Source: a virus (taxonomy: Duplodnaviria > Caudoviricetes). From it: DNA of 64,000 bases. Below are positions 21,229-58,798 of the stretch, piece after piece (positions within the stretch are counted from its first letter, which is position 1; each line of letters begins with the position of its first letter). The stretch covers positions 1 to 64,000 of the IMG/VR virus record IMGVR_UViG_2558860994_000004; one strand, 5' to 3'. Position numbers and translations under genes: made by a program. The notes beneath the pieces are model-generated. The model was not told the DNA's origin and made no database searches. It worked only from the letters and a program-made list of their open reading frames with translations.

Positions 21229-21269
21229 TGGAACCTACCAGATTTAGCCAGACCTTAGATTGATACCGT
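21229..21269 (+). promoter_or_regulatory. GGAAC-box late promoter candidate
   Basis: TGGAACCTACC-...-TACCGT, 29-nt spacer. Confidence 0.6.
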
Positions 21270-21300
21270 GTTTGCTCAAATTTTGATTGAGTGATGCAAT

Positions 21301-22119
21301 ATGAGTTTAAATGATCTGGTTTTCTGGTTGGGCTTCATTATTGGTATTGCCCTTGTATTAATTTGCACAGGGATTTTGCGCTATCTCAAGCCAAGTCGTA
21401 CTTATGATAAACCGCCTTTTGTGCTTGAAACTTTCCCTATGCCTTCATACAGTCCATTAGAAGCACTACGCGAAGATATCCGTAAATTGCATGGGAAATT
21501 TGATGAATTATTTAAGCCTTATGTGACCGGTTGTGAAAAATATAAACCAGGCTTAGAAGAGCTTTCTAGGAAGTGGGCAAAGCCGGAAGTTAAACCCAGT
21601 ATTGTCCCTCAGACTGATTTAAAAACATCACTGGCCAAGGCTGGTTTAGATAAGCTAACACCCGTAGCAAAAACGAAAATTGCGGATCTGGATGGTGAAA
21701 CCATTTATGAGGATGCAGACGGCCGCCGGGTATTGTCCCCAACTTCTGTTGAGATCAGTGGCGAGAAATACAAGCTTTTAGCAGGCCGTACCTATATGGT
21801 TGATGTTAATGAGCTGCGTACCATTGATATTGAATTCCAGGCTGGCAACCCGGCAGTTAATGGGGTAAATGGCCTAACCAATGAATTGCTGCTGGCCATT
21901 CTTATTGATCGTACGAAGGTGCTGGATAGTGAGCAGCCTTGTGATGAAAACAAGCTGGCCTTGGATTATATGCAGTCTGCGCTTGAGTGTTTTCAGGAAC
22001 GTATAAAGGTCCAGAAACATAAGCCTATTGATAATAGCGATTTGAACGAGTTGCTTGAGCAGGCAATAGACTTATGTAAATCTAATGATGAGATGAAAAA
22101 AGAATCAAATCAACATTGA
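21301..22119 (+). CDS. N-terminal TM protein with C-terminal Tad1-like (signal-sponge) domain
   Basis: IEFQAG..VNGVNGLTNELLLAILIDR...PCDENKLALDYMQSAL...R resembles the Tad1 core as I recall it (IKFQKG...HGV..SDLLEIVRDRL...SRENACALTHVEEAL..MNRR). Confidence 0.65.
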   Translation: MSLNDLVFWLGFIIGIALVLICTGILRYLKPSRTYDKPPFVLETFPMPSYSPLEALREDIRKLHGKFDELFKPYVTGCEKYKPGLEELSRKWAKPEVKPSIVPQTDLKTSLAKAGLDKLTPVAKTKIADLDGETIYEDADGRRVLSPTSVEISGEKYKLLAGRTYMVDVNELRTIDIEFQAGNPAVNGVNGLTNELLLAILIDRTKVLDSEQPCDENKLALDYMQSALECFQERIKVQKHKPIDNSDLNELLEQAIDLCKSNDEMKKESNQH

Positions 22120-22120
22120 T

Positions 22121-22161
22121 TGGAACCAGCCTCATTGATGCCAATTTGAGCTAAGTACATT
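22121..22161 (+). promoter_or_regulatory. GGAAC-box late promoter candidate
   Basis: TGGAACCAGCC-...-TACATT, 29-nt spacer. Confidence 0.65.
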
Positions 22162-22203
22162 AGGGACTCTTTCATAGAGTCCTTTTTATTTAGGTCAAAG
22201 ATT

Positions 22204-22581
22204 ATGCGTAAATTACGAATTGGTTTAATTGGTCTTATGGTTGGTTTGGCAATTACTGCATGCAGTGATAATAACTATCACCCTACTTATAATGAAACAC
22301 CAGCAACGGCACAGGCTCAACAAGGTGGCATTAATAACAATGATGTACTGGTTGCTGGTGCCGGGGCAGTAGCCGGTTATATGCTCGCCAATCGCAACAA
22401 TCAGGCAAACCAGTATCACGCTCAGGATTATGGCGGTCGCTCATATCCGGCAGTCCACAAAACGGTAGTAGTGAATAAAGTGGTGAACGTATACCACAAG
22501 CCTAAACGCGCCAGTTATTTCAAGCGTTCATATTCCAGCTCACGTTCCTATAGCACCTCGCGTTCATCCCGACGACGATAA
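22204..22581 (+). CDS. Lipoprotein with Arg/Ser-rich C-terminus
   Basis: Lipobox ITAC after a basic/hydrophobic leader. Confidence 0.75.
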   Translation: MRKLRIGLIGLMVGLAITACSDNNYHPTYNETPATAQAQQGGINNNDVLVAGAGAVAGYMLANRNNQANQYHAQDYGGRSYPAVHKTVVVNKVVNVYHKPKRASYFKRSYSSSRSYSTSRSSRRR

Positions 22582-22584: not shown

Positions 22585-22625
22585 TGGAACACGCCAGCTT
22601 TTCAATAAAGTATGGTCAGTAAATT
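22585..22625 (+). promoter_or_regulatory. GGAAC-box late promoter candidate
   Basis: TGGAACACGCC-...-TAAATT, 29-nt spacer. Confidence 0.55.
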
Positions 22626-22666
22626 AAGGGTTCATTGAAGGACCCTTTTTTTATTGGACTAAAATC

Positions 22667-22813
22667 ATGCTTAAGCATTCTGTACGTCGTTCATTCCTGC
22701 AACGAGCCTTTATTGCCTTGATCAGCGTGATTGATAGGATGCAGGAAAAATTAACAACACCTACGATAACCAAGCCACTGGAACCGCCCAGATTTAGCAT
22801 AAATCCTGAGTGA
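22667..22813 (+). CDS. Possible 48-aa peptide
   Basis: MLKHSVRRSFLQRAFIALISVIDRMQEK...; lies between two GGAAC boxes. Confidence 0.35.
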   Translation: MLKHSVRRSFLQRAFIALISVIDRMQEKLTTPTITKPLEPPRFSINPE

Positions 22814-22819
22814 CACAAT
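22779..22819 (+). promoter_or_regulatory. GGAAC-box late promoter candidate (protease-terminase operon)
   Basis: TGGAACCGCCC-...-CACAAT, 29-nt spacer. Confidence 0.7.
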
Positions 22820-22849
22820 AAGCCCTAATGAGATATTGGGGCTTTTTTT
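22820..22849 (+). terminator. Terminator-like hairpin overlapping the promoter start region
   Basis: AAGCCCTAAT-GAGAT-ATTGGGGCTT followed by a T-run, directly before ATG 22850. Confidence 0.6.
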
Positions 22850-23776
22850 ATGACAACGCCAAAACCAAGGGGCAGAAAGACCAAGCCGATTACTTATAAC
22901 TTGCATGACCGGGGCTGGAAACACAACGGCCCTGACCGTAGCAACGTCGATATGCAGTCCATGATTCGCTTGATCAATAGTTCCGGTGTGCAGGAACTGG
23001 TTGATGAAGGCAAATTATGGGGCTACTGCGGTCATAACATTCGCCAGCGCTATGGCATGCGGCCACCTGAAGCCATTGTCATTGAAGGCAAGATGGTTTA
23101 CTTGGCACCTGCGTTTAAAACCATTGAAATTAAAGCGCATGCAAATGGTGACGTTACCCATCGTGCTGAGTTTACGACCAATGAAGCGGGTGAGTGGGCG
23201 CGTGAGCAATATCTGGCTCAGGTTGGTGGGTTTAGTACAGCGGTTAATTTTAAGCAATTTACCATGCCGAAACAGGTATCTGGTTTTTTTGGCTTTGATT
23301 ATGTGCTGCAACCAAATTACACGACTAATGTTGGTGATGGCCAGCTTTATGACGGCCTGTTTTTGCCTGAGGATGTGTCAGCTGATAGTGGGGTTGCCTG
23401 TTTTGATAGTCTGACCAATGTTGAGCAGCTTGACCCGGCTAATGCTCAAATTGCCCGGATGCTAGAACAGCAAATCTTAAGTGACATGCAGAACATCAAT
23501 GCGCAATTGGGTTTGTTGCAGCATGCAGAACGTGCATATGACCATATTGAAGCCATGGCACAGCAGGAAGCGCGACGTGAACAGCGTGAGAACTTGCAGG
23601 CCCAGCGGCAGGCCGAACTGTACACGGGTATGGTTGGTGAGATTCGCTCATTTGATTCAGTGTGTGCAGAGGCAGATGAGTTGCTACAGCGCGCTATTAA
23701 TCCTTATGACACCCGCACACGAACTGAACCGGCGAAGAAAAAACCCCGGCTGTTTTCATTTGGTATGCGCTCATGA
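22850..23776 (+). CDS. pro: P1-like head-processing (prohead) protease
   Basis: WGYCGH, GDVTHRAEF, VGGFSTA and FFGFDYVLQPNY match the P1 Pro pattern as I recall it. Confidence 0.75.
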   Translation: MTTPKPRGRKTKPITYNLHDRGWKHNGPDRSNVDMQSMIRLINSSGVQELVDEGKLWGYCGHNIRQRYGMRPPEAIVIEGKMVYLAPAFKTIEIKAHANGDVTHRAEFTTNEAGEWAREQYLAQVGGFSTAVNFKQFTMPKQVSGFFGFDYVLQPNYTTNVGDGQLYDGLFLPEDVSADSGVACFDSLTNVEQLDPANAQIARMLEQQILSDMQNINAQLGLLQHAERAYDHIEAMAQQEARREQRENLQAQRQAELYTGMVGEIRSFDSVCAEADELLQRAINPYDTRTRTEPAKKKPRLFSFGMRS

Positions 23777-24582
23777 GTGCCGCCATTGCTGATCCGCTCA
23801 AGGCCATTCAGGATGCCTGGTATAAAACGCTGATTGATTTTCGGGCGTGGTACATGCCTGAAACCCAGCAAACGGCAGAATGGAAACAACGGGTACTGGG
23901 GCATGCCATTAAATCCTGCCCGGGCCGCATGATGGATGATGCCGAGGCCATGCTTGCCGAATACCGCAAAGCCCAGAATGCAGCGGTGGCTGGCGGTGCG
24001 ACTGCGTTTATGCCGGTCATGTTGACGGCTACAGCCATTGTTGACCAGCCGCCCAACGTCAGCCAACTGCCCAATGTGCCCTATTTTGTGGATGTCATTA
24101 TTTCGGGCAAGCCTGCAAAAATGCGGCTCATTCCCAAGACAGTTCGCGCACAAATCGCGTTCTTTGCTACCAATCCTCACGATGCCCGTTCTATCTGTGA
24201 TCAGGTGTGTGCCTACGTTACAGATGACATCAAACGTCGTATCGCCGTGCAGTTTGATTTTGGCGACGGGATTAAGCGGCCTAGTCCATTCACCGTACTT
24301 GAAAATGAGCTTTTCCCTACGCCTGTACCCAGTGAAGCCATCAACCTGTCTATATTCACTGTTGACGCGCAGCTGGTGGGTTATGTACCTCAGGTACTGG
24401 GCCTTGGCGGGCAGTTTGATAACACGGTGGGCAATGGATACAACCCTGACGGTTCGCCAATAGATAAGCCGCCGGTTAATGATTCAGTGGTTGTACAGGC
24501 CGATGCCTTTGACGTTGGCCATACCCGCGTGTTGGCGGATCCTGAAACTGGTATTGTGACCGTGGAGCAGCTTGATGATTAA
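23773..24582 (+). CDS. Putative virion morphogenesis protein
   Basis: Coupled ORF in the late operon. Confidence 0.6.
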   Translation: MSAAIADPLKAIQDAWYKTLIDFRAWYMPETQQTAEWKQRVLGHAIKSCPGRMMDDAEAMLAEYRKAQNAAVAGGATAFMPVMLTATAIVDQPPNVSQLPNVPYFVDVIISGKPAKMRLIPKTVRAQIAFFATNPHDARSICDQVCAYVTDDIKRRIAVQFDFGDGIKRPSPFTVLENELFPTPVPSEAINLSIFTVDAQLVGYVPQVLGLGGQFDNTVGNGYNPDGSPIDKPPVNDSVVVQADAFDVGHTRVLADPETGIVTVEQLDD

Positions 24583-25117
24583 GGTGACTCCCAATGAAAT
24601 TAATCCGGCTGATGAGATTGTACGCATTGATAGCCGCGTCATGGGCTTTAACGGTGAACCTGTCCGTATTCTGGCTGTTTGTTTTAAAGACACTGGGGAA
24701 ATGCGGATTGAGAAAAAAGAAATTTACACCAATCTGCCGGTACCTGCGGAATTAAAGGCCAATACCATTGTCGTGACGGACGCCATCCACCAGGTGCAAA
24801 ACTGGGATATGCCGTTTAATCCTGAAAAAGACCTGGCTTCGGTTATCACGGTGTACCAGCAACGATTCCGGGCCGGCCTGATTGATATTGAAAAATCCCT
24901 CAACCGCTATAACCCGAAAACCGTGCTGCAGGTGCGTAAGGTTGATGAAAAGGGCTTAAAACAGGAATTTGACAGCAGCAGCTTAAACAATGGTCACGTT
25001 GCGGTATTGCTCTGCGTGTGGGCCAGCCAGCGTGTTGCGATCAGCCATAGTATTACACATGCACAGGGGATAGATGCCAAAGCCATAGATACCTCGATGT
25101 TGCCTTTTAGCATCTAG
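24575..25117 (+). CDS. Phage hypothetical protein
   Basis: Coupled ORF directly upstream of the terminase. Confidence 0.6.
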   Translation: MIKVTPNEINPADEIVRIDSRVMGFNGEPVRILAVCFKDTGEMRIEKKEIYTNLPVPAELKANTIVVTDAIHQVQNWDMPFNPEKDLASVITVYQQRFRAGLIDIEKSLNRYNPKTVLQVRKVDEKGLKQEFDSSSLNNGHVAVLLCVWASQRVAISHSITHAQGIDAKAIDTSMLPFSI

Positions 25118-25125
25118 GGGGCAGC

Positions 25126-27117
25126 ATGGCGTTAAAACCCCTAAAAGACATACCTGAATGGTGGGAGCTGTGTGTACGCTACCGCTATGACATTTATGCT
25201 TTCGCGGTTGAGGCGCTGGGCATTACGCCCACATGGCAACAAGAACTACTATTTGAATCTGTCCAGTTTGATGGTAGCCGTACATCGGTTGCGTCAGGTC
25301 ACGGCTGTTTTGGTAAAGGCACCAAAATCCGGCTGTTTAACGGCAAATGGAAGCGCGTTGAAAAAATAACAATAGATGATCAGATCATGGGTAGCGATGG
25401 GATATCGCCCCGTGAGATCACCCATGTTGTGCGCGGCCAGCAGGAACTGTACCGCTTTAATTATGCCAATGGCGTCAGTCACGTTTATAACCGGTCACAT
25501 ATTTTGTGCCTGGTGTCGCTAGAAACAAAGAACGGCTGGAAAGCTGGCGACAAAATGGAAGTGCTAGTGTCCAAATGGCTCACATGGCCGGAAGATACCA
25601 AGCGCCAGTTTGCGGCCTACCAACTCAAGCATAAAAAATATCAGCCTGTTGCCATCACCAGTGCCACGGCCTTAGGCGTAGGGGATTACTACGGCTTCGT
25701 GCTGGACGGTGACGCCACGTTTCTAGGCGCTGATGGCATGCTGCTACACAACACCGGTAAAACCGCCAGTGCGGGCATTGTGGCGCTCTGGCACCTACTG
25801 TTCTTTGATGAATCCATCATGATGTTTACTGCCCCGCAAATCGGGCAGCTGAAAAAACAAGTCTGGAAAGAAATCAGTATCAACCTGAGCCGCCTTAAAA
25901 GCGGCCCTTTGGCATGGCTGGCAGAATATGTCGGCTATCAGACTGAAATGGTCTACGTTAAAGGCTATAAGGAAAAATGGCACGTCTTTGCCAAAACCGC
26001 ACCGAAGCACCAGCCAACCAACTTGGCGGGGAACCATGGCGATAACTACATGGTGTGGGGTGATGAGGCCAGCGGTATTCCAGATGAAGTCTGGGACGTG
26101 GTACTGGGTGCATTAACGCATGCCGACAACCGGGCGGTGATGACATCACAGCCGACCCGTAACGCTGGCATGTTCTATGAAACACACCATGGCTTAAGTC
26201 ACCGCTCAGACGGTATATGGATGGCGCTGACCTTTAATGGTGAAGAGTCGCCGCTTGTATCTGAGCAATCCCTTGAAGAGCAGCGCCAGAAATACGGCAG
26301 CCGTGATGATGCCCAGTACAAAATTCGTGTGCTCGGTGAATTTCCTGATTTAGCCGATGAATTTTTGATTACCAAGCGTATGTCAGAAGATATGTACGTT
26401 GGTAGCTCAATTTTTGAAGAGATTCACCAGTTTGGCTATGTGATTACCGTAGACGTCGGCGGCGGCGTGGGTCGGGATGATTCGGTTATTTGTGTGGGCA
26501 AGGTCTGGGGTGAAGATCAGTGGGGCGAGCGGGCAAGGCGGGTTGAAGTTGAAAAAATCCCGCTGTGTAAAAACAAGGACAATATTACTGAACTGTTTGG
26601 CATTATTAGTGAGCTGCTGGAAAATTATTCCAATGCTTTACTTGTGGTCGATGATAACGGCGCAGGTAAGGGTCTTGGCCAGTTGTTGCAACAGCATGGC
26701 ATCTATTATTTGCCTGTGTATTGGGGCGGTGGCTGCTTTAACGAGGATAACCGCAAAGAGTATTACAACAAGCGGGCGCTGGCCTATGTGTGCCTAAAAC
26801 GTGCCATTGAGCATGGCCGATTCAAGATTAAAACCAACAAGTACAAAGTAAAGCTGCAAAACCAGATTATTAAAATTCCCTATGGCTTTGATGAGCATTC
26901 ACGCTACAAGCTGCTGGGTAAGGATGAAATGAAGCGTAAGGGTATCAAGTCGCCGGATATGGGCGACGCGCTGGCGTTTTTCTTTCTTGAGAATGTGCAT
27001 TACACCGAAGCGTACGAGAAAGCCGCGCTGGATGTGGATACACCAGAAGGACAGGAACAGGCCGCTAAAGCATCACGTTTTGAGCGATTAAGGCAGGCCG
27101 CACAAGAGCAATTATAA
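25126..27117 (+). CDS. terL: Terminase large subunit (PacB-like) containing an intein
   Basis: Walker A SGHG/TGKT interrupted by an intein; Walker B VWGDEASG; MTSQPTR; nuclease ITVDVGGGVGRDDS; KSPDMGDA. Confidence 0.9.
   Translation: MALKPLKDIPEWWELCVRYRYDIYAFAVEALGITPTWQQELLFESVQFDGSRTSVASGHGCFGKGTKIRLFNGKWKRVEKITIDDQIMGSDGISPREITHVVRGQQELYRFNYANGVSHVYNRSHILCLVSLETKNGWKAGDKMEVLVSKWLTWPEDTKRQFAAYQLKHKKYQPVAITSATALGVGDYYGFVLDGDATFLGADGMLLHNTGKTASAGIVALWHLLFFDESIMMFTAPQIGQLKKQVWKEISINLSRLKSGPLAWLAEYVGYQTEMVYVKGYKEKWHVFAKTAPKHQPTNLAGNHGDNYMVWGDEASGIPDEVWDVVLGALTHADNRAVMTSQPTRNAGMFYETHHGLSHRSDGIWMALTFNGEESPLVSEQSLEEQRQKYGSRDDAQYKIRVLGEFPDLADEFLITKRMSEDMYVGSSIFEEIHQFGYVITVDVGGGVGRDDSVICVGKVWGEDQWGERARRVEVEKIPLCKNKDNITELFGIISELLENYSNALLVVDDNGAGKGLGQLLQQHGIYYLPVYWGGGCFNEDNRKEYYNKRALAYVCLKRAIEHGRFKIKTNKYKVKLQNQIIKIPYGFDEHSRYKLLGKDEMKRKGIKSPDMGDALAFFFLENVHYTEAYEKAALDVDTPEGQEQAAKASRFERLRQAAQEQL
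25306..25752 (+). mobile_element. 149-aa mini-intein (no homing endonuclease)
   Basis: Starts CFGKGTKIRLFNG, has block B SHIL, ends YYGFVLDG...LLHN with Thr as the +1 residue. Confidence 0.9.
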
Positions 27118-28642: not shown

Positions 28643-28683
28643 TGGAACCTGCCTAAATCCTTGTGTTTGGGTGGTTCTATCAT
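28643..28683 (+). promoter_or_regulatory. GGAAC-box late promoter candidate (tail fibre operon)
   Basis: TGGAACCTGCC-...-TATCAT, 29-nt spacer. Confidence 0.7.
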
Positions 28684-32318: not shown

Positions 32319-32524
32319 CAGTTAAAGCAACGATCAACCTGACGCCACCACCACGCTGGGGCAAGATTAAAGGCATTCTGACAGATCAACCGGATTTAAA
32401 AGCTGCCCTTGATGCAATTCATACTGAGATTGATGAGCAGCGTGACGAGCTGACAGTTTTAAATAACGCGCTCAATGATTCAACGGATTTTGTTGGCCTG
32501 ATTAATGCCACCATGGAGATTTAA
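32315..32524 (+). CDS. Small tail-fibre-associated protein
   Basis: PRWGKIKGILTDQPDLKAALD fibre-type motif. Confidence 0.55.
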   Translation: MTVKATINLTPPPRWGKIKGILTDQPDLKAALDAIHTEIDEQRDELTVLNNALNDSTDFVGLINATMEI

Positions 32525-32527
32525 TAA

Positions 32528-33025: not shown

Positions 33026-33027
33026 TC

Positions 33028-34397: not shown

Positions 34398-34456
34398 TCA
34401 ACTCACCAGATGAGCTGAATAATCCATTTATTCGACTCATTACTTATTCTGATCGC

Positions 34457-34497
34457 TGGAACCTGCTGCCTGAGCATGTCTGCTGTAACTGCATAAT
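34457..34497 (+). promoter_or_regulatory. GGAAC-box late promoter candidate
   Basis: TGGAACCTGCT-...-CATAAT, 29-nt spacer. Confidence 0.65.
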
Positions 34498-34525
34498 AAC
34501 CATACTTAATACAGGTAGAACAGTA

Positions 34526-34843: not shown

Positions 34844-34869
34844 AAAAGGCGCATAACAGCGCCTTTTTT
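34844..34869. terminator. Intrinsic terminator
   Basis: AAAAGGCGC-ATAACA-GCGCCTTTTTT. Confidence 0.8.
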
Positions 34870-34883
34870 ATGCCTGATGCAAT

Positions 34884-47197: not shown

Positions 47198-47204
47198 GAA
47201 CGAT

Positions 47205-47585: not shown

Positions 47586-49072
47586 TGGCCAATCAATCCA
47601 TATCCCAGCGGCCAGAAGCCACTACACTCAAAGATAATGACCTCATCCCAATTAGCCAGAAACAACCGAATGGCAGCTATCTGACCTGTAAAGTCACTGC
47701 CGATAAGCTCAAAGGTGCATCATCGTATCAGCAGTGGTTTAACCAGAATACGTCTGAGAATACCTACCTGACAATGCAGAGTATTCAGCAAATCCAGCAG
47801 GTATCAAATTACAATAGTATTAGCAGCTTTATTGCTGCAACTAACCTAAACAGTACTTACAACAATTGGGCGCAGAACAATCTGGAAGTACAGTTAGGCT
47901 ATTTGACTGATAGTGACTTGCTGGAACAGTTCAATACTTTTTTACAAGCCGACAGTAGCCGGACGTTTAATGATTTTCTCGTTAATCAAAACCTGTCTGC
48001 GAGCTTTAACTCATGGCTTACTGCAAACCAGTCTGATTTGTTTGCTTCATTTGCCCAGAATACAGAAGCCCTTGCTGCTTACACCAGCTATCTTCAAACC
48101 CATGCTCAAGCAACGATACAGCAGTTTTTAAGCAATATCGGTGCGCAGGACGGGTTTAATAACTGGCTAGAGGCGCGTGTTGATAAACTCACCGAAGACG
48201 CATTTAACCGCATGATGGAAGGTAAAACCAGTAAGCCCGTTCCTGCATCCAAGTTTGAAAAGTTCTGGATCAGCCTGTGCGGTATATACCAGCCATCTAG
48301 TCCGCCTGCACCCAGTGATTTATTGGTCAATGCAATTGCACTGCCCACTGATATTTTCTTTGATCGGAATGAAAAGCATCAGGTTTCTCCGATTGATGAA
48401 AATATCCCTAATTTCATGCTAACCAGTAGTACTGGTTTCTGGATCAGGGATGCAGGCCATTACACTGAAGATGGTATTCATACAGAAGAACCTATAGAGC
48501 TGACTGTTACCCCGAATGGTGACTTTGCTCCTTTTAATTGGCTTGATGCTGGCCAGCGCTTATATGTTAAAGCTGGAAGTACCCTTGAAGTTGGTTGGGC
48601 TGATACACCTGCTGCTATGGCATTAAAGACTGTGACGCTGGTTGCCAAGAAGAAAGTAGAAGTAGAGTCAGATACAGCAGTCGTGAAGTTATCGGGCTGG
48701 TTTAAGATTTATGACAGCGTCAAGGGCTGGGTGCTGATGTCAACAGCGAGTGGCGCTCTGCCTGCCATATTGAGTCTGGGTGATGTTGCATTCTTTAGTG
48801 ATAAGTTTTTATTTCAGGATTCGATGCTATCTAACTTCTTTTATAACGACTTTTCAGCCGTTGCTACAGATTATGACCCGATATTCTATCAGCATGGCAC
48901 TGTCACTATTAAGAATATGTCAGGAATTGATCGTGTGTTGACACTCGTTCCTTATAACCAGGGTACTACCTATATCAGTTCAGTCGATGAAAACCCGAAT
49001 GACCTGCCATCTAATATACAGATTAATGGTGGGGTTATTGCCATTAATCTAACCGCCAATCAGGATGCCTAA
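47585..49072 (+). CDS. Putative appendage/fibre protein
   Basis: MANQSISQRPEATTLKDNDLIPISQ attachment-type N-terminus; N/Q-rich helical repeats. Confidence 0.6.
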   Translation: MANQSISQRPEATTLKDNDLIPISQKQPNGSYLTCKVTADKLKGASSYQQWFNQNTSENTYLTMQSIQQIQQVSNYNSISSFIAATNLNSTYNNWAQNNLEVQLGYLTDSDLLEQFNTFLQADSSRTFNDFLVNQNLSASFNSWLTANQSDLFASFAQNTEALAAYTSYLQTHAQATIQQFLSNIGAQDGFNNWLEARVDKLTEDAFNRMMEGKTSKPVPASKFEKFWISLCGIYQPSSPPAPSDLLVNAIALPTDIFFDRNEKHQVSPIDENIPNFMLTSSTGFWIRDAGHYTEDGIHTEEPIELTVTPNGDFAPFNWLDAGQRLYVKAGSTLEVGWADTPAAMALKTVTLVAKKKVEVESDTAVVKLSGWFKIYDSVKGWVLMSTASGALPAILSLGDVAFFSDKFLFQDSMLSNFFYNDFSAVATDYDPIFYQHGTVTIKNMSGIDRVLTLVPYNQGTTYISSVDENPNDLPSNIQINGGVIAINLTANQDA

Positions 49073-49979
49073 TATGTTCCTAATCACAACAGTATTAAGG
49101 CCCAAGCCAAAGCAGGTGATGATTGGCTGCGAGGGTGCAATAGAACTTGTGCATTTGGGCGGGTTTTATGGTTGCTGGACAGTTCTGATTAATGGCGTAC
49201 CTTTAGATGTTCCACCTTACGAGGTAGGTAATGGTACGACGATTGAAAACTGGTGGAGTGAGATAATTCAGGCAATCCGGGAAGATGGCAGGGTATCAAT
49301 TAAGTATGTTGGGGAATTACATACGATCTGGAGCAATAACACGACTGAGTATGTGCGTATAGAGCTGATTGGTTTACCAAACCCTGATTCTCCGAATTTA
49401 TCAGCCATCAATGATTATCCTGATGTTTCACCAGATGAATTAAACCCGACACGGTTACTTGAAAATCCGGTGGAAAATTTTCCAGAATCATTTAGTAAGG
49501 TTTCATTCTGCCTTGCCCCTTCGACCTGTGCTGCGCAGGGTGCAGATATCATCATTAACCGTTCTATTCCATTGCCTGCTGGAACGTATTACATGGAATA
49601 CCAGCTGAACGAGGGTAACTGGCAGCGTATTGAAAAGACTTATTCAGTGCAAAAACATGCTGATGATGTAGGTATGGATTTATTTAGAATCTTTGATGAA
49701 TCCGGCTGGGCATTAATTGATACAAATGGCGGTGGTAATGGCACACTTGATGAAGATGGTCTACGTCGTCACCCGACACCTTTTGAATCATACCGGGCGA
49801 GGGCTGAAATCAGGGATGCACCGTTAGTTCCTGATATTCAGCCTGAACTGGCAATTCGTAAACCAACAACATTGAAGTTTAGAACGTCACTGGGTACAGG
49901 TACTGATGCGGTGCAACTGTATTTCGGTGGTGATGTCGAGCTGCATGCGTGTACGTATGCATTCTGGCCCGGTCTTTAA
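49065..49979 (+). CDS. Putative virion accessory protein
   Basis: Coupled to the previous ORF. Confidence 0.6.
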   Translation: MPNMFLITTVLRPKPKQVMIGCEGAIELVHLGGFYGCWTVLINGVPLDVPPYEVGNGTTIENWWSEIIQAIREDGRVSIKYVGELHTIWSNNTTEYVRIELIGLPNPDSPNLSAINDYPDVSPDELNPTRLLENPVENFPESFSKVSFCLAPSTCAAQGADIIINRSIPLPAGTYYMEYQLNEGNWQRIEKTYSVQKHADDVGMDLFRIFDESGWALIDTNGGGNGTLDEDGLRRHPTPFESYRARAEIRDAPLVPDIQPELAIRKPTTLKFRTSLGTGTDAVQLYFGGDVELHACTYAFWPGL

Positions 49980-50029: not shown

Positions 50030-50542
50030 ATGTTTGGTTTTCCCCGCGCTAAAATCCTGAGCTATAACCAGAAGGCCCGGACAGCCCAGATTCATATTTA
50101 TGGTATGACAGATGGGGCCAGTGAAGGTTTAGAAGCCACATTTGCTTATCCGGTTGGTGATGACGACCTTGATACCGAACGCGAAATATTGGTCGGTGCA
50201 GACGTGTATATCTTCTTTCAAAATGGTGATGAAGGCTTACCAGTGGTCTGGAGCTACAGCAGTCACGGTGAGGGAGCCGTTGAAGATGTGCGCCGGATCC
50301 GGCAGAAAAATATTGAAATTCTTGGGCGTGAAAATGTACTGGTTGAAGCCCCTATAGTAACAATTAAGGCCCATCTCGTGCTTGAGGGTGATTTTACTCA
50401 CACAGGCGACCAGACGACAACGGGCAAGATCACAGCCACAGAAGATGTGATAGGTGGCGAAGTATCTCTTAAATCCCATCCTCATAGTGGAGTCAGACGT
50501 GGGTCTGAACAAACTGACCCACCCATGCCTACTGGAACCTAG
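50030..50542 (+). CDS. Baseplate spike (gpV-like)
   Basis: OB-fold start; GDFTHTGDQTTTGKITATEDVIGGEVSLKSHPHSGV tip with HxH. Confidence 0.85.
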   Translation: MFGFPRAKILSYNQKARTAQIHIYGMTDGASEGLEATFAYPVGDDDLDTEREILVGADVYIFFQNGDEGLPVVWSYSSHGEGAVEDVRRIRQKNIEILGRENVLVEAPIVTIKAHLVLEGDFTHTGDQTTTGKITATEDVIGGEVSLKSHPHSGVRRGSEQTDPPMPTGT

Positions 50543-50573
50543 CCCATTTCCATAAAATCCATTCAGCCAAAAT
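50533..50573 (+). promoter_or_regulatory. GGAAC-box late promoter candidate (portal)
   Basis: TGGAACCTAGC-...-CAAAAT, 29-nt spacer. Confidence 0.65.
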
Positions 50574-50593: not shown

Positions 50594-52228
50594 TTGGCAA
50601 CAAGAATGGCAGTTTCAGATGTTTTAGCAATCTTGCTCGGTGCAGGCTCCGCTGCTTCAGCACCGTCGCCTATCGTCGGGGCAGCTCAAGAAAGTATGGC
50701 GCATATGTATGACGCCGCTGCGCCATTTTCGCTAGGCACCCATCAAACCAAAAATAATAAGAAACGTACCCGCAAGGAAATCATGACCAAATGGGAGCAA
50801 ATGCTTAAGTTTGCCCCTATTGCTGAAAGTATGGGAATCCATAGCACCGCTGCACTGGGTGGTGATGAGCACACCAGCCAGCAAGTATTCATTAAGCCTG
50901 CTGAACGCCTGCAAAAAGCCGACAACCCTGTTTTAAAAGCACAGCTTGCCAAACTTGAAAAACGTATCAAGCCGATGGAGCGGCTGATCAATCAGCATAT
51001 TCTTAAACTGTGTTTTGATGCCTGCGGCTTTGGCGATTCCTATGCCCGTGTATATGGGAAAAAAGGCATTGGCGTCGTGGATATGATGTGTAACGAATAC
51101 ACCTATCCACCGCTGGTTTTACCGTTTGAGCAGGGTAGTAAAACGCTGGTCTATCATTTGTTGGACGCCCGAAACTGGACGAATACCAGTTCAAAATTAG
51201 GGGCGCGACAAATGATCCGCATGAAAATGCCGCGGATTCTGCACGTTCCCCAGCATGAAATCATTGAAGGCGTGCTTGTTGCCAAGATGATGGAAGAGGA
51301 CGACCCGGACAATTTGCCGCTTTTCCCAGCGCATGTGGGTGGCTCATTTTTAATTGCCATTGAAGAAATTTTTGACAATGTGATTCGTGCGCTAGCGGCA
51401 ATGAATACACAGCAGGTTGCTGATGCAGTCAACCAGATGTTTTTAACCATGAACATGGCCGGTATGCCACCGGCACAGCGTGAAGCCTACAAGCAAGGGC
51501 TTGAAGGCATGTTACGTGAGCATGAACAGTTTGTTAAGAATGCATTAGATGGCGGCGAAGCACTTTACACCACGAAATACCACGTATTGCCAACATGGGA
51601 TGAAAAGCAAATTTTAAACCCGATTGGCGATATCAAGGGCCAGCGTAGTACAGCCATTAATATTGAAACTTTTATGATTGACGTACGCTTGCTTATGGGG
51701 GGCCTTGGTCTGGACCCGTCCATGGTAGGCTGGGCTGATATGTTATCCGGTGGAATAGGTGATGGTTCCGCGTCCCTGACGTATTCAAGCCAGGTGATGC
51801 GCCGTTCCATGATGATACGGCAGTCCTCAAGCCAAATGGTTAATGACTTGCTTAAAATTGACTGGGGCTATGCCTATAACGAAGATTTTGACAATGAACT
51901 GGATTATCCATGGCAAGTGGTCTTTCATTCTGATCAGACTGCAGCAGCCAATGAAATCCAGACGACCAAGCAAACCCGCATGAATACATTGCTGATTAAG
52001 ACGCAGGTCATTACCGCGATTAAAGACGCAGGGCTTAATGAAGAAAATACCGCACTACTGTTAGAGCGTGACGGGGGGATGGATTACGACGAAGCCCAGA
52101 ATCTGGCTAAAGATATTACCAGCGCCCGGGAAAAAGCCTTAGAGGATGGCCAAAATCCCAATGGCAATCCACAGGATGACAACTTAAATCCTGAACCAGA
52201 AAATGACGACGAAGAGGACGGCATTTAA
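50594..52228 (+). CDS. Portal protein (P1 Prt-like)
   Basis: 544 aa; FGDSYARVYG..GIGV...YTYPP.V.PFEQG...LGLDPSMVG.ADMLSGG.G; acidic tail. Confidence 0.75.
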   Translation: MATRMAVSDVLAILLGAGSAASAPSPIVGAAQESMAHMYDAAAPFSLGTHQTKNNKKRTRKEIMTKWEQMLKFAPIAESMGIHSTAALGGDEHTSQQVFIKPAERLQKADNPVLKAQLAKLEKRIKPMERLINQHILKLCFDACGFGDSYARVYGKKGIGVVDMMCNEYTYPPLVLPFEQGSKTLVYHLLDARNWTNTSSKLGARQMIRMKMPRILHVPQHEIIEGVLVAKMMEEDDPDNLPLFPAHVGGSFLIAIEEIFDNVIRALAAMNTQQVADAVNQMFLTMNMAGMPPAQREAYKQGLEGMLREHEQFVKNALDGGEALYTTKYHVLPTWDEKQILNPIGDIKGQRSTAINIETFMIDVRLLMGGLGLDPSMVGWADMLSGGIGDGSASLTYSSQVMRRSMMIRQSSSQMVNDLLKIDWGYAYNEDFDNELDYPWQVVFHSDQTAAANEIQTTKQTRMNTLLIKTQVITAIKDAGLNEENTALLLERDGGMDYDEAQNLAKDITSAREKALEDGQNPNGNPQDDNLNPEPENDDEEDGI

Positions 52229-52807: not shown

Positions 52808-52848
52808 TGGAACCTGCCAGAAACCCATCATTTTTAGCCTGACACAAT
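52808..52848 (+). promoter_or_regulatory. GGAAC-box late promoter candidate (darA operon)
   Basis: TGGAACCTGCC-...-CACAAT, 29-nt spacer. Confidence 0.7.
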
Positions 52849-52880: not shown

Positions 52881-54830
52881 ATGCGCCGGAATATCGATAT
52901 TTTCACCCAGACTCATGCACCGCATTCCAGCCGGTTTGTGGCAGGTTTTGATTCCATTAACAGCGGGTCCTGTGCAGTAGGTTTTATTGCTGGCCAATAT
53001 CGCCGTATCCCGGCGCTTGTGGCTGAAACAGCGACCGATGATGACCAATGGCGAGTTGTTAATCTAAAAGGCGGTAAGGGCAATGAAGCGCATTTTGATG
53101 CGATTGCGGTACTGGGCGCGGTAGATGATCAACAGGCAGCTGATATGACGTTAATGCAGTTTGGCCGCCTATTTGATTCTGTGGCTATGGATGTGCTGAC
53201 AACCAATACCAATGGCCTAATGCGCCATTTAGATACCAGCCACTACCACGCTAAACCCAGCACCATTGCCCCATGGCAACTTAAGGCCATGCAGGACGTG
53301 ATTTGTGCTGAAAAACCTATGTGGGATGACATCAATCTGGTATCCCATAAAGGCCAAACCGCCAATTTGCTGCTGGATATGCAACGCCATGATGACCACG
53401 ATGGGTTGTTATCCCAGTTTGACGGATTGCCAAATTTGCTTGAGCAGCTTGGCGTTGAAGAGCCGGGCTTTGATGCGCTCATTGTGCAGTATCAATATCT
53501 TGAAAAGCTGACCGCACAATTGCATACCGCTATGAAAAATGCGGGCAAGGCTGGTGTGCAAGTGGTGAATGTCACCGTTAGCAAGCCATTCAAGCGTAAC
53601 AAAGTGGCGCAAGTTGCGGTGACTTACGATATGGCAGACGGCCAGAGCGTCACGATTCTCTTTCACAACCCTGACAGCACACCGTCCAAACTGGCGCCAG
53701 CTGATACGCTCATTTCATGGAAAATCCAGATGAATAACCGTGATATTACTGGCGCTATTCAACCGAACCAGGGTGAAGGTATTGCCTTACCAGTGCTGGC
53801 TGGCCGTATTCTAAAACTGGTCAATCAGAATAGTGACCGGTTTAAGCGCTACCAGGTTAAAAAAACAGAGCAGGCGCAGGCTTTGGCGGATGCCGAACAG
53901 CGTATCACTGATAAAACCGCCCTCGATAAAGCGCTGGACGACGAAATGACTGATTTACAGCAACAGATTGATGCAGCCCATGAGCAGGCCAAGCAACAGC
54001 AGGAACTGGCTCAGCAAAATAGCGAAGTTCTTAAGGGGCTTATGGCTGATATTGCAGCAACTGCTGATCTGGGTGAAGCCACTACCAAAAATTACTTCTT
54101 TAAAGAAAAAGAGGTGGATGGCACCAAGTTTCATTTGTCAGTAGACCCATTTGGTGATGGCCTGACGGTTTGTTTATCAATCATGCCTGCCACTGGCGGC
54201 GAGCAGACAGAAGAACAGGCCTTTACGCTAGAACAACTGCAAAACGGTGGTTTTGAGGAAGCTAAGGCCTATCTAAAAACACTGGATGAAAAGTTTAATC
54301 AGGCCGTGGTTGAGGATGATTCGATTCCTGCTGAAGATATTCAGTTTGTGAGAGATATCGAGGCAGGCACGGTAGACGGTCTGGCCGAAGATAATTTCAA
54401 GCGCTTATATGGTATTGCTCAGGAAACCAAAAACAATGGGGATGAGGAAACCGAAGGCGCAGCAGTTAGTGCTGCAACGGTGATGGCCGAGAAACTTAAA
54501 CCTGTTGCAACTGAAAAAGGTATCTCGCTTGAGCGCCTAAATACCGCGATTGATGATGAAGATGTACTGGAAATCCTAGATTCCATTGAAGCCTTGCAAG
54601 CTGCCCTTAATGCAGCACCTGAACCTGAGCCTGAACCAGCTGCTAACCCGGATCAGGAGTTTCTGCAAAACATCATTGCAGGCACTGTGGACGCCACAAC
54701 TGTTGATATGGATCACATCATAGAACTGGGCGAGAAGTACCCAGACGATGCAGCATTCAATGCATTGTATGAGCAGGCTCTCAATGCGATTAACAAGGCT
54801 GAGCAAGAAGCCGCCAAGAGTTTGGGTTAA
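52881..54830 (+). CDS. darA: Defence-against-restriction protein A
   Basis: DarA_N-type domain (ADGQSVTILFHNPDSTP...ISWK..MN.RDIT...P.QG) and two DarA_C-like repeats (FVRDIEAGTVD, FLQNIIAGTVD). Confidence 0.8.
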   Translation: MRRNIDIFTQTHAPHSSRFVAGFDSINSGSCAVGFIAGQYRRIPALVAETATDDDQWRVVNLKGGKGNEAHFDAIAVLGAVDDQQAADMTLMQFGRLFDSVAMDVLTTNTNGLMRHLDTSHYHAKPSTIAPWQLKAMQDVICAEKPMWDDINLVSHKGQTANLLLDMQRHDDHDGLLSQFDGLPNLLEQLGVEEPGFDALIVQYQYLEKLTAQLHTAMKNAGKAGVQVVNVTVSKPFKRNKVAQVAVTYDMADGQSVTILFHNPDSTPSKLAPADTLISWKIQMNNRDITGAIQPNQGEGIALPVLAGRILKLVNQNSDRFKRYQVKKTEQAQALADAEQRITDKTALDKALDDEMTDLQQQIDAAHEQAKQQQELAQQNSEVLKGLMADIAATADLGEATTKNYFFKEKEVDGTKFHLSVDPFGDGLTVCLSIMPATGGEQTEEQAFTLEQLQNGGFEEAKAYLKTLDEKFNQAVVEDDSIPAEDIQFVRDIEAGTVDGLAEDNFKRLYGIAQETKNNGDEETEGAAVSAATVMAEKLKPVATEKGISLERLNTAIDDEDVLEILDSIEALQAALNAAPEPEPEPAANPDQEFLQNIIAGTVDATTVDMDHIIELGEKYPDDAAFNALYEQALNAINKAEQEAAKSLG

Positions 54831-54842
54831 GGGGGTAAAACG

Positions 54843-55187
54843 ATGTTGACTGCATTAGAAAAAGCCAAAGCCCTTAAAGAGTTTAGAGAATTGCGCCTTA
54901 AACTGGCTGGTGATGGATTAACCGCGCTGGACAAGGCCAAATCGTTAAAGCGCTTTCGTGAATTGCGTTTGTTGCTGGGTGGACAGAATCAACCAGAAGC
55001 ACAGGAACCCGCCAATAATCCGCTGTACCAGTCCATTCTGGAAGGCCGGGAAGTCACACTAGAATTGCTGGAGCAGGTCAAGGCAGAGGCCGAAAAAGAC
55101 TTGAACCATCCACAGCTGATTCCCGCTGTTCTTAAACTTAAAGAGCAGGTTGAACCATTACAGGTGCATCAGAGTGAGGCGGCTTAA
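54843..55187 (+). CDS. Small dar-operon protein with tandem N-terminal repeat
   Basis: LTALEKAKALKEFRELRLKL / LTALDKAKSLKRFRELRLLL, then NPLYQSILEG. Confidence 0.7.
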   Translation: MLTALEKAKALKEFRELRLKLAGDGLTALDKAKSLKRFRELRLLLGGQNQPEAQEPANNPLYQSILEGREVTLELLEQVKAEAEKDLNHPQLIPAVLKLKEQVEPLQVHQSEAA

Positions 55188-58100
55188 ATGGTGTCGAAAA
55201 CGGATAAAACCGCCTTAAATCAAATTGACGTCGTTGCAAATCCCATTGCAGCGATTGATGCGATGATTGATGCGCTTAAGCACCAGCAGCACGAAAACTA
55301 CGAGTTTTTAACGGGTGAACCGGTTGCATCCATCCAGTCCGGCCAGATTAAGCCTGATGAGAAGGGTCATTACATCAAGGCGGCTGTTAACTGGTTTAGG
55401 GAGTGGATGGACAAAAATAGCCATGGGCAGGAATTTGAAAATGTGCAGCTAGGAACAATCATTATTGCGCCTAGTGGCATTAAATCAGCCATGAGTCATA
55501 AACCCCACCCAATTGATGTTCAGGCGCTACCGGCCTTGCCTTTGATTATTGAAAAAGCTGTTGTTCTCAGTAGAACAATGGATGATATGGGCAAACCATT
55601 AGAAAATATTGTGGTCGCGGCACCCATCGAAATTGACGCCAAAAAATATTATATGGTTGTTCGTTTAAGACGGCACACTGAAGATAAAAACGATAGACCC
55701 CGCTTTTATACGCAAGCGGTTACTATTGCAGAGGACATAAAAAAAGGACACATCCCTTCAGACCAAGTGACTGGGCAAAATAAATTGCTTACTCAAAATG
55801 GAGGACGTGTCCGTTTATTAAATGTACTGTATAGCGCTCTCAGTGTCAATAATCCAGCGACCAGCATTGTTACAGGCCGTACAAACACTGTAAAAACCCC
55901 AAAAGGCACCAAACTTGATACGGTTTTTGCACTGGTTGAAGCTGACAATGTAATTGCATCACACGATAGCACTGGCGGGACTAATCCTAAATTTCCGCAA
56001 GAATTGCAGCCGCGTGACCGTAGCCGCGAAGCCAGCCAGACATGGGTGAAAAAAACAGCGGCCAATCTGGATCCTGATAGTCTGGGTAAAACCAGCCGTG
56101 CAGACACCGGTGCGCCGATTGTTGGTGATGACTTGATTGTTGAATCCGGGAACGGTCGCACCATGGCGATTCAATTAGCGTACGCACGTGGTACCGCAGA
56201 GGAATACCGCGCTTGGCTGGTTGATGAGGCAGAATACTTTGGATTTAAGCCTGAACAGGTTGAAGCCTTTAAGCAGCCTGTACTGGTGCGTATCCGTAAA
56301 ACTGAGATTGACCGTGCCGCATTTGCAGTAGAAGCGAACCAGGATGATAAGCTGTCTTTGAGTGCCACGGAACGCGCCAAGGCCGATGCTCGCCGTATTG
56401 ATGACAATATGGCGATGCTATTTAACCCAAGCGAAGATGGGGATTTACTGGCGGCCAGTAACCAGAAATTTATACAGGCTTTTTTACAGTCCATTGGTGA
56501 TACCGAAGCTGCTCAGTATATTGGAACCGATGGCAAGCCAACGCAGGCACTAGTTTTACGCATTAAAGCAGCGGTATTTAGCAAGGCTTATAAGGATGAC
56601 CGTCTTTTAGAGATGGTGGCAGACCAGACCAAGCCAGACTTAAAAAATATGCTGAATGCATTAAGTGTTGCGGCGCCCAAGTTTATTGAGGCCCAAGCCA
56701 TTAGCCGGTTACAAACCGAAGATTTATCCAGTCAAATTGTTGATGGTATTGAAAGTGCCACTGACCAAAAGGTTATTGATGCGATTATTGCCGCTGCAAA
56801 CGTGGTGATGACCGCAAAAAATGACAACCATGACGTGACCGAGTTTGTTAAGCAGCAAGGCCTGTTTGGTGATTTACCGGATGGTGTGGCAGAGCTGGCC
56901 GTATTCCTATCCAAAAATGCCAGCAGTGCCAAAAAGATGAGTCTGTTATTCAAAGCTATGGCCAGCTTTTTGGAAAAACAGGCAATTGACCAGAGTAACA
57001 ATAGCCTGTTTGGTGATCCTGAGCCGCTGAGCATGCGAGAGGTCATTCAGCATGCTGTTGGTGTACTTGAGCAAGAATATGGCGATAAAGCCAATTTAAG
57101 CATGTTTGATGATTTAGGCTTTCTAGAGCCTAAGTTATTTGACCAGATTTTTAAGTCCTACGCCCGCACTGGGGAATGGACACCAACAAAATATCTGGAG
57201 CAAATGGATGCGTTGCGTCGTATTTTCTTTGCAAACGGCTGGGGACGTGAAAGACGTACTAACGGCTTCATGATCAAGCCTTGTGGTGAACGCAAAGTAC
57301 GTCTTATTAAATATGCCGATGATGATAAATTTTTTGTCAGCATCGTTGATTTAGATGAAAAATTAATCACTGAAATTGTAGGTTGTGATAATAAGGCCAT
57401 TCCTGAAATCATTGCTGAAATTAATAAATATCTTAATGAAGATCAGCAACTATCATTAGAAAAGTCTGGCTTTGATTCGGTTGATGGCAATGATCAGATT
57501 GCTATGGTGCCTAAGGTTGATGCTAGCAATACATGGATGAATGGGCAAATCATTCCATGGTCAGAAAATCCTGAGACTGATTTTGCGCATTCCATGAAAT
57601 TGCCATCTTCCGGTCAGCTTGGTGATAAGGTTTGTTTTCATGTCTGGGCAAATGAAAGTAAAGAGTCAAGGGTGAGAATAGATGCATTTATTGCAGATAT
57701 TAAGTTTAAGACCAGTAAAGTATGGTATGGACTGGCCATGCGCATTGCTGATACGCGATTTGCGACACTGATTTACTTACCTAGTGGGACTTTTGATATT
57801 TTAACCAGTCATGAAAGTGTAGACGGTTATGATGCCTTACTCACCATGGAAGAGATATGTCGGCATAACTGTTTGCGTACTGATATTGATAAGCAAGCCC
57901 ATGAAGCCGCCACGTCACCTTACAATGATTTGCCAGAGCCGACTGAAGCACAAAAAATTTCAGGGGATTATGTGAAGGGCAAGCTATCAATTGCGGGTGT
58001 AGATATAGCGATTGAAAATCCGGCTGGTTCTACACGCTCAGGCGTTGACGCCAGTGGAAAGGCTTGGCAAACCACGATGAAGCATCACTATGGCTACATT

Positions 58101-58772
58101 GAAAATACCATGGGTGCCGATGGTGATGAGCTGGATGTATTTGTTAAAACTGGTTTGAATGAATATACCGGCATTGTGTATGTCATCCGCCAGCTTGATC
58201 CAGAAAGCCTAGATTTTGATGAACACAAGATCATTATTGGCGCGTCTACATTAGAAGAAGCCCAGCAAATTTATTTGTCTAATTATGAATCGGGCTGGCA
58301 GGGGATGGGCAGTATTGAAACGCTATCCATTGAAGATTTTAGGAACAGGCTGGGTAAGACCTGGACGCAGTTTGATTCGATTGGCCAGCACGTTGAGCCA
58401 ATCACTGTTCTGAATCAGCTTATTGGCATCTTGCAGGCCAAAAAAATCACTGACCAGCAGCAGTTAATGGAACTGCGCGAGGAAATTCGCACCAATGAGC
58501 AGACCGCCCGTTATTTGATGGGTGGCCGTAAGGGATTGTGGGGCCGCACAACCAATGCGGACAATAAACGCAGTGCTGAATTGTCAAATTTACGCCTGAA
58601 ATACCAGCTGGCACTGAATCATTTTATTGCCCTGTATTCCATTGACAAGCGGGAAGCCCGTACCTTTAATTTACGCCATGGCGTCAATTCTTTTGATTCC
58701 ATCGAAAATGACCAGATACACCCAGTATTTCATGCGATTTATGGGCATGGAAACCACTGGAACAGCGCATAA
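55188..58772 (+). CDS. ddrB: DdrB-like polyvalent protein (LPD3-like + DdrB-ParB + inorganic-pyrophosphatase-like domains)
   Basis: ParB-like ELQPRDRSR...GAPIV...VESGNGR; InPase PTEAQK..G.Y.KG...IENPAGS.RSG...HYGYI...GADGDELDVFV. Confidence 0.75.
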   Translation: MVSKTDKTALNQIDVVANPIAAIDAMIDALKHQQHENYEFLTGEPVASIQSGQIKPDEKGHYIKAAVNWFREWMDKNSHGQEFENVQLGTIIIAPSGIKSAMSHKPHPIDVQALPALPLIIEKAVVLSRTMDDMGKPLENIVVAAPIEIDAKKYYMVVRLRRHTEDKNDRPRFYTQAVTIAEDIKKGHIPSDQVTGQNKLLTQNGGRVRLLNVLYSALSVNNPATSIVTGRTNTVKTPKGTKLDTVFALVEADNVIASHDSTGGTNPKFPQELQPRDRSREASQTWVKKTAANLDPDSLGKTSRADTGAPIVGDDLIVESGNGRTMAIQLAYARGTAEEYRAWLVDEAEYFGFKPEQVEAFKQPVLVRIRKTEIDRAAFAVEANQDDKLSLSATERAKADARRIDDNMAMLFNPSEDGDLLAASNQKFIQAFLQSIGDTEAAQYIGTDGKPTQALVLRIKAAVFSKAYKDDRLLEMVADQTKPDLKNMLNALSVAAPKFIEAQAISRLQTEDLSSQIVDGIESATDQKVIDAIIAAANVVMTAKNDNHDVTEFVKQQGLFGDLPDGVAELAVFLSKNASSAKKMSLLFKAMASFLEKQAIDQSNNSLFGDPEPLSMREVIQHAVGVLEQEYGDKANLSMFDDLGFLEPKLFDQIFKSYARTGEWTPTKYLEQMDALRRIFFANGWGRERRTNGFMIKPCGERKVRLIKYADDDKFFVSIVDLDEKLITEIVGCDNKAIPEIIAEINKYLNEDQQLSLEKSGFDSVDGNDQIAMVPKVDASNTWMNGQIIPWSENPETDFAHSMKLPSSGQLGDKVCFHVWANESKESRVRIDAFIADIKFKTSKVWYGLAMRIADTRFATLIYLPSGTFDILTSHESVDGYDALLTMEEICRHNCLRTDIDKQAHEAATSPYNDLPEPTEAQKISGDYVKGKLSIAGVDIAIENPAGSTRSGVDASGKAWQTTMKHHYGYIENTMGADGDELDVFVKTGLNEYTGIVYVIRQLDPESLDFDEHKIIIGASTLEEAQQIYLSNYESGWQGMGSIETLSIEDFRNRLGKTWTQFDSIGQHVEPITVLNQLIGILQAKKITDQQQLMELREEIRTNEQTARYLMGGRKGLWGRTTNADNKRSAELSNLRLKYQLALNHFIALYSIDKREARTFNLRHGVNSFDSIENDQIHPVFHAIYGHGNHWNSA

Positions 58773-58798
58773 AAGCACCAATTACCAAGCCTTAACAT
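58758..58798 (+). promoter_or_regulatory. GGAAC-box late promoter candidate (darB)
   Basis: TGGAACAGCGC-...-TAACAT, 29-nt spacer. Confidence 0.55.

Follow-up and report, generated by a model that had tools for sequence, protein, structure and literature searches.

Gene content of the prophage and position of the elements

The stretch of DNA analysed here, 64,000 nucleotides (nt) long and called the window below, comprises positions 1 to 64,000 of the IMG/VR record IMGVR_UViG_2558860994_000004 (Duplodnaviria; Caudoviricetes) and corresponds to G000:C3:575297-639296 in a 3.3-Mb host genome. It belongs to a prophage in which a two-box element, TGGAAC followed after exactly 29 nt by a YAnnnT hexamer, recurs in front of the late genes; a preliminary description had interpreted 13 such copies as promoters of a late regulon. 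Judged by its gene content, the prophage is a temperate phage with a lambdoid-style early region and P1-like virion genes. The early region adjoins a tRNA-Leu (573-654; Rfam) and encodes an integrase, an S24 repressor, Cro, a CII-like protein, Ant, DUF1376 and DnaC-like replication proteins, and a RusA-like protein. The CII-like protein is the product of a separate early gene (5475-5945), and the cro promoter has ordinary -35 and -10 sequences. P1-like late proteins detected by tblastn (22-55% identity) include Pro, PacB, gp26, gp25, BplA, Prt, DarA, DdrB, and DarB, while PHROGs add sheath, tube, baseplate, portal, and Hdf-like proteins to the late region; apart from one unassigned 803-amino-acid protein (see below), the large open reading frames (ORFs) encode terminase, head, DarA, DdrB, and DarB homologues. 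Comparison with a phage collection at the DNA level gave a single match, in the terminase, and a scan of viral contigs using one protein gave one locus. The prophage ends near umuDC, beyond a holin-endolysin pair.

All 13 TGGAAC boxes are found on the + strand at the positions originally given, each with the listed hexamer 29 nt downstream, and all lie at gene boundaries ahead of late operons. Site 1 (21229-21269) precedes a gene for a 272-amino-acid (aa) protein (21301-22119), and site 2 (22121-22161) a 125-aa gene (22204-22581), with a terminator-like hairpin (22162-22184) directly 3' of its hexamer. Site 3 (22585-22625) is followed by a hairpin (22626-22647) and a 48-codon ORF. Site 4 (22779-22819), the strongest, stands before the P1 Pro-like gene and the terminase operon (22850-27117), again with a hairpin (22820-22844) directly 3' of the hexamer. 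A tail-fibre-like gene and a P1 gp26/gp25-like operon (from 28710) follow site 5 (28643-28683). The start of the 100-aa gene (34526-34828) behind site 6 (34457-34497), 69 nt after TGGAAC, is fixed at 34526, because the product matches phrog_5187 over residues 1-100 of 100. Site 7 (34884-34924) precedes a 590-aa head gene (start 34970), whose equivalent map position in the isolated temperate phage vB_AbaM_ABMM1 (ABMM1) is annotated as a head vertex protein. Site 8 (38257-38297) lies before the sheath genes (38329-39921) and just downstream of a terminator-like hairpin (38216-38241). In the segments 34860-34884 and 38235-38257, an identical short linker (TTTTTcATGCCTGA..) joins the T-run of the upstream terminator to TGGAAC, and the two may represent a duplicated junction. 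Sites 9 (41312-41352), 10 (45083-45123), and 11 (50533-50573) are located before an Hdf-like gene with the baseplate operon (41382-44654), the tail-tube operon (from 45153), and the portal gene (50594-52228), respectively. The DarA-like/DdrB-like operon (52881-58772) is preceded by site 12 (52808-52848), which has a hairpin directly 3' of the hexamer, and the DarB-like gene (from 58835, continuing beyond the window end) by site 13 (58758-58798).

Of two weaker copies mentioned in the preliminary description, one looks genuine. The sequence CGGAAC-N29-CACTAT (17562-17602, +) is a probable weak site, followed by a hairpin and the ATG of an 803-aa tail-tip-lysozyme-like gene (17632-20043), with positional counterparts at the homologous junction in ABMM1 (62785) and in the related genome G322 (18181). 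The other (13630-13670, +), before the operon of the RusA-like protein, a helix-turn-helix (HTH) protein, and a 288-aa protein, is doubtful: it has the box TGGAACCaaCC without a proper -10-like hexamer, and no counterpart is listed before RusA in ABMM1.

Specificity and conservation of the two-box element

The bare hexamer TGGAAC is unspecific, as had been cautioned, with 48 copies in the window (39 on the + strand); the informative signal is the spaced pattern. TGGAAC-N29-YAnnnT has 14 matches, all on the + strand and none on the minus strand, against 1.19 +/- 1.12 expected from dinucleotide-preserving shuffles of the window (shuffle maximum 4). Thirteen of them occupy gene boundaries, and the fourteenth (37680), which lies within a coding sequence, is devoid of the extended consensus. 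The latter, derived from the 13-site alignment, reads aCTGGAACC-nn-CC-a-n-ATTt ... cAnAATAagCC; C at position 7 in 10 sites and at position 11 in 12, as reported earlier, contributes to it. Leave-one-out scores for the columns outside TGGAAC are above zero in nine of the 13 sites and below zero in all 26 unclaimed + strand hexamers; they are marginal for sites 5, 6, and 13. Within the downstream hexamer, A2 and T6 are kept in 13/13 sites and T1 in 5/13. The alignment contains no conserved TTGACA-like hexamer 16-18 nt upstream of it, in agreement with the original remark on the lack of a consistent -35, and canonical -35/-10 pairs are rarer than chance in the late region (25 vs 39 expected). 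The distance from TGGAAC to the start codon is 67-89 nt for real ORFs and 61 nt for the portal gene.

Both strands of the host genome were scanned with a matrix derived from the 13 sites. Scores above 20 bits were reached genome-wide only by these sites and by two untrained copies on the same strand (C3:640987 and C3:642812), which lie 1.7 and 3.5 kb beyond the window end inside the same prophage and precede a P1 PmgG-like head-morphogenesis gene and the holin-endolysin pair, respectively. The best match elsewhere in the host genome scores 18.7 bits. Together with the weak copy at 17562, this amounts to about 16 sites in one orientation in one prophage. The motif is real, specific to the phage lineage, and conserved.

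Of 400 other genomes from the same bacterial family, 28 contain portal homologues, which are found in nine of 21 genera if that of the window is counted. In the approximately 72-kb regions compared from five relatives, the element on the late strand consists of GGAAC, a fixed offset of 34 nt (twice 33), and cAAAATAGCC. Both boxes and the 34-nt (rarely 33-nt) offset from GGAAC to the downstream box thus recur, on the late strand only, in six phages. They persist in relatives at protein identities of only 30-60%, unlike the intervening spacer, which is not conserved; conservation in related prophages, proposed earlier as a check, is borne out. Box variants among these prophages include TGGAACC..CC, TTGGAACt, and GGAACACCCC, and some extensions are lineage-specific (e.g., GGAACACCCCTAAA in G322 and G182). 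Junction counterparts in relatives are recognisable for at least two of the marginal sites, namely site 5 (ABMM1 2680, G213 25357, and G237 37093) and site 13 (G213 60262). In ABMM1, copies are located 67-74 nt before the tail-fibre, sheath, portal, and holin genes and two other genes. At its portal junction, divergent boxes lie back to back about 10 nt apart (28433 on the - strand and 28444 on the + strand), and the same arrangement is found at the portal junction of loci L008-L010 (~1406-1418). The paper describing ABMM1 contains no promoter analysis, and no paper joining TGGAAC with a phage late promoter was found in the literature searched.

Among viral contigs, the exact two-box pattern occurs in 66 stretches, 35 of which are clear relatives of the prophage. 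Loose copies in these 35 related contigs are distributed 88 on the same strand vs 3 on the opposite one. The other stretches have at most one homologue of a window protein nearby, and their number is approximately that expected by chance for a 16-base pattern, according to a rough estimate.

The genome G385 (C13, L095-L097) carries a more distant relative, with a portal 33% and a terminase 39% identical. Its box reads GGAAAAyC; GGAAAAy is strand-biased (23 vs 6) and recurs before late genes in a 60-kb stretch (reverse-complemented; e.g., 8325, 9118, 19794, 22044, 24578, 33067, 36610, and 55551). G385 may thus possess a divergent form of this system, controlled by another regulator. Among defective elements, late genes are kept in G063 (C13, L098-L100), with at least six motif copies, and in G158 (C5, L092-L094), with at least three; in G063 they directly adjoin a tRNA-Leu-like sequence.

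Several genes between the sites deserve a comment of their own. The sheath operon behind site 8 contains a 95-aa sheath-N-like ORF (38329-38616) and a 432-aa sheath ORF (38623-39921) as separate genes. In G213, a small sheath piece (34323-34595) is located apart from the sheath gene (32184-33476), and two genes of ABMM1 are annotated as 'tail sheath protein' (9575-10870 and 11718-11996). Since the small piece is also separate and elsewhere in relatives, the split looks natural rather than the result of a nonsense lesion. The ORF 47151-47585 appears to be a paralogue of 38329-38616, because both match the same loci in relatives. The segment 27182-28626, which separates the terminase gene from site 5 and its tail-fibre-like gene, is a low-GC stretch (0.38-0.41) with ORFs of 197 and 279 aa, for which neither PHROGs nor the relatives compared provide a match; it looks like an inserted cargo cassette. 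Another cargo insertion is probably present in the tube/tail operon (47585-49979), where ORFs of 495 and 304 aa likewise lack PHROG matches and counterparts in the relatives compared.

Candidate regulator pair

The search for a regulator covered window ORFs of at least 50 aa (tblastn, 1e-5). The only non-structural genes common to divergent relatives are two neighbouring genes that follow RusA and close the early region, ahead of the late one, in the position that Q has in lambda. The first gene (14384-15121, +) encodes a 245-aa protein with an N-terminal XRE-type HTH domain and is the candidate for the first part of a late activator; its true start is likely to be the MAK codon near 14411. 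The second (15130-15996, +) encodes the 288-aa candidate for the other part, in which an HTH-like domain of three helices at the N-terminus is combined with a long coiled coil and which belongs to no known family. ABMM1 has the same gene order, i.e., RusA, HTH protein, 278-aa protein and, two small ORFs on, the tail tip lysozyme; it is the only isolated phage encoding the candidate regulators. In ABMM1 (59643-61028), G213, and G135 (L062, L060), the frame of the HTH gene extends up through the RusA-like gene without a stop. ABMM1 is annotated with two genes there, and the open frame may be either a script artefact or a real fusion or read-through.

In the 245-aa protein, the recognition-helix core NR-I/M-SEIENG is invariant down to 26% overall identity; the predicted model is uncertain (predicted local distance difference test, pLDDT, 68). 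The model of the 288-aa protein (pLDDT 85) comprises the HTH-like domain of three helices, a disordered linker, and the long coiled coil. Its family consists of 65 clusters; it has no Pfam family, no sequence match in the PDB, and no Foldseek match with E < 1, and the Atlas yielded only small-terminase-like leads. Homologues of the candidate regulators carry the name Acinetobacter in their sources.

The two genes are adjacent in 15/15 loci examined, and the 288-aa family occurs in 24 of 29 portal-positive genomes (the window's own included) vs 4 of 372 portal-negative ones, and in none of 400 genomes sampled from other families of the class. In G385, the P1-like virion module and the terminase are present, while the regulator pair and the GGAAC motif are both absent. 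This co-occurrence is suggestive of, though not proof for, a role of the pair as late activator, and a new factor made up of two proteins is the probable regulator. As possible activators, the products of the 125-aa and 272-aa genes that follow sites 1 and 2 were rejected, since they are not conserved across relatives.

Late-promoter interpretation and relation to known systems

The element has the look of a promoter, with two short boxes that keep a rigid distance across a free spacer and of which one resembles a -10, retaining A2 and T6. If the hexamer occupies -12 to -7, TGGAAC would extend from -47 to -42 and the CC pair would fall at -38/-37, so that an activator might sit beside the missing -35. 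Such a placement would resemble that in class II promoters. A survey of 54 curated sites from eight phages revealed a terminator-like hairpin starting at the first nt after the hexamer in 19 sites, with an offset of 0 in 19/19 (random, 3.3%). Its T-run ends 0-4 nt before the ATG, and the 3' arm carries a G-rich stretch 7-8 nt from the ATG; in 15 of the 54 sites, a hairpin is located upstream of the box instead. The exact phasing of the hairpin argues that the hexamer fixes a start point. Since sigma70 polymerase initiates about 7 nt after the -10, most of the 5' arm would be missing from a transcript that begins at the site.

The features of the sequence lend good support to the late-promoter reading: the element is strand-specific, situated at gene boundaries, restricted to the prophage, and conserved, and every prediction that a regulon of this kind makes at the sequence level holds. 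With a probability of roughly three in four, the elements are late promoters with a sigma70 -10, no usable -35, and a phage-specific box, activated near -44, most likely by the HTH pair. From the same features we infer the use of sigma70, the start point, the identity of the activator, and the logic of terminator escape. The box TGGAAC (here extended to TGGAACC-nn-CC) would be placed at a rigid distance, approximately -47 to -37, upstream of cAnAAT, and host RNA polymerase would use the sites only while a phage-encoded DNA-binding factor, most likely the XRE-HTH protein together with the 288-aa HTH/coiled-coil protein (14384-15996), occupies the box. About 16 operons for packaging, head, tail, anti-restriction, and lysis functions could thereby be switched on together. 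Transcription entering from upstream would copy the hairpin completely and terminate, whereas a transcript begun at the site, without most of the 5' arm, would read on with the ribosome-binding G-rich stretch free. More tentatively, and at somewhat less than even odds, the pair may constitute an unrecognised two-protein late activator, unrelated to Lpa, Mor/C, Ogr, Q, and RinA, that took over a P1-style regulon in a large prophage lineage of Acinetobacter and related genera, and in which the fusion of promoter and terminator insulates the operons, so that the first gene would be translated only from promoter-initiated transcripts.

Several observations weigh against this interpretation. In position 1 of the hexamer, C is commoner than T, which is weak for a -10. 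Neither the 245-aa nor the 288-aa protein was found to resemble a characterised activator, and the activator search reached only proteins of at least 50 aa that tblastn recognises at 1e-5. The link between the pair and the motif could reflect the shared ancestry of whole phages, as G385 is the sole contrast case and related genomes are non-independent samples. G063 and G158 carry motif copies without a detectable pair; this is weak counter-evidence, because their terminase is also lost and they look like remnants.

The same late promoters might alternatively be served by a sigma-like or sigma-remodelling subunit carried on RNA polymerase, so that the polymerase itself reads both boxes; T4 gp55/gp33 and MotA/AsiA are examples of such factors. 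A polymerase-bound reader would suit the rigid spacing of box and hexamer in all phages and the asymmetric, non-palindromic box, and the two linked proteins, one mostly coiled coil, also speak for it. It is nevertheless rather unlikely, as both candidates contain ordinary HTH domains, no sigma70-family domain was found in the early-region proteins scanned, and the hexamer retains the sigma70 hallmarks A2 and T6. For the loading of lambda Q, a DNA site acts together with a sigma-dependent pause at a -10-like sequence, and the elements could by analogy be antitermination loading sites at which polymerase pauses at the hexamer, is modified by a box-binding protein, and passes the terminator. The candidate genes do lie in the Q position, and 19 of the 54 sites have their terminator directly after the hexamer; however, two thirds of the sites have none behind and 15 have one upstream of the box, the tight start-codon distance suits promoters better, and no Q-family match was found among the proteins scanned. 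Moreover, a Q-type modification lasts for tens of kilobases and would make 16 reloading sites redundant, which renders this explanation very improbable.

Hardly any credence is left for an action of the element in RNA, as a processing, stability, or translation signal of polycistronic late transcripts, with which its strand specificity and fixed distance before start codons would be compatible. Folding of the 42 nt from box to hexamer is no better than in shuffles (mean minimum free energy z +0.3, n=54), and Rfam identified no family at the element, its single match in the window being the tRNA-Leu. Two short boxes with a fixed but non-conserved spacer are typical of protein-DNA recognition, one of them is a -10 look-alike, and divergent back-to-back copies occur at bidirectional junctions. 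An inverted repeat (ATTT..AAAT) between the boxes was considered as an RNA or DNA hairpin and dismissed, given that there is no excess folding and the spacer is not conserved in relatives.

Promoters of other polymerases or sigma factors were rejected as well. A T7-like or other phage RNA polymerase promoter lacks a polymerase candidate among the large window ORFs; the 803-aa protein encoded ahead of site 1 is rich in glycine and has a C-terminus resembling lysozyme, and its ABMM1 homologue is annotated as tail tip lysozyme. A sigma54 promoter (TGGCAC-N5-TTGC, GG at -24 and GC at -12) would require a GC 10 nt after the GG, and none is conserved there. Promoters of extracytoplasmic function (ECF) sigma factors share the pentamer GGAAC, but their own -35/-10 gap is 16-17 nt, whereas 29 nt separate TGGAAC from the only conserved downstream box, nothing is conserved at the ECF -10 position, and no sigma domains were found among the proteins scanned.

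The late-promoter reading can be compared with several characterised phage systems. Phage P1 has 11 dispersed late operon promoters with a sigma70-like -10, no -35, and the activator Lpa (PMC10695390). As annotated in AF234172, these promoters read aAC-AAGTGACTT-N4-TAnaAT. A further characteristic of Lpa-dependent promoters is their dependence on the host protein SspA. The prophage resembles P1 in having many separate late operons, each with its own putative phage-specific promoter, and in the kinds of operon that the sites precede (portal, dar/hdf, tube, gp26/25, and packaging). Its virion, packaging, and Dar genes are homologous (22-55% identity), and occasional divergent pairs are found in both, the LP26/LPpmgL pair of P1 sharing one -22 box. 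In P1, however, the 9-bp box AAGTGACTT is located at -22, 4 nt from the -10, whereas TGGAAC lies at approximately -45, 29 nt away. A P1-type -22 box, with one mismatch allowed, has 0 matches on both strands of the 80-kb prophage region, and tblastn of P1 Lpa against the window gave a best E of 0.53 over 8 residues, consistent with the difference from Lpa sites that had been pointed out. No PHROG annotated as a late promoter activator was matched among the proteins scanned, and both candidate regulator proteins are absent from P1. From its sequence, the system appears to work like the P1 late regulon without being a member of it.

In class II promoters, such as Mu Pm with Mor, the Mu late promoters with C, and lambda PRE and PI with CII, the -35 is weak or absent and the activator site abuts or overlaps the -35 region, centred at approximately -42 to -44. 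The position of the box, as deduced from the spacing, would likewise be beside the -35 region. There is, in contrast, no homology to Mor/C or CII, the targets number about 16 vs 1-4, and the box is asymmetric rather than a dyad or direct repeat. With lambda Q and PR', the prophage shares the location of the candidate regulator, between RusA and the late genes, and a terminator that closely follows the putative promoter; lambda, however, uses one promoter and one long transcript, whereas here there are about 16 putative promoters and no Q homologue was found.

The prophage offers a testable regulon for a common prophage group: it has about 16 putative promoters, whose consensus is defined, and two genes that are candidates for the regulator. 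Homologues of their products are frequent in Acinetobacter (A. baumannii included), where one is seen on at least 1000 contigs, and no description of late-gene control in ABMM1 was encountered in the literature searched. In practical terms, the motif aids the annotation of operon boundaries and true start codons in these prophages, and the sites could serve as tightly controlled orthogonal promoters for Acinetobacter genetics. The phasing of the hairpin against the -10 suggests a compact insulation of neighbouring operons. For the evolution of these phages, the system would represent a regulatory replacement, in which the P1-type layout of distributed late operons has been kept while the activator and its DNA box have been exchanged.

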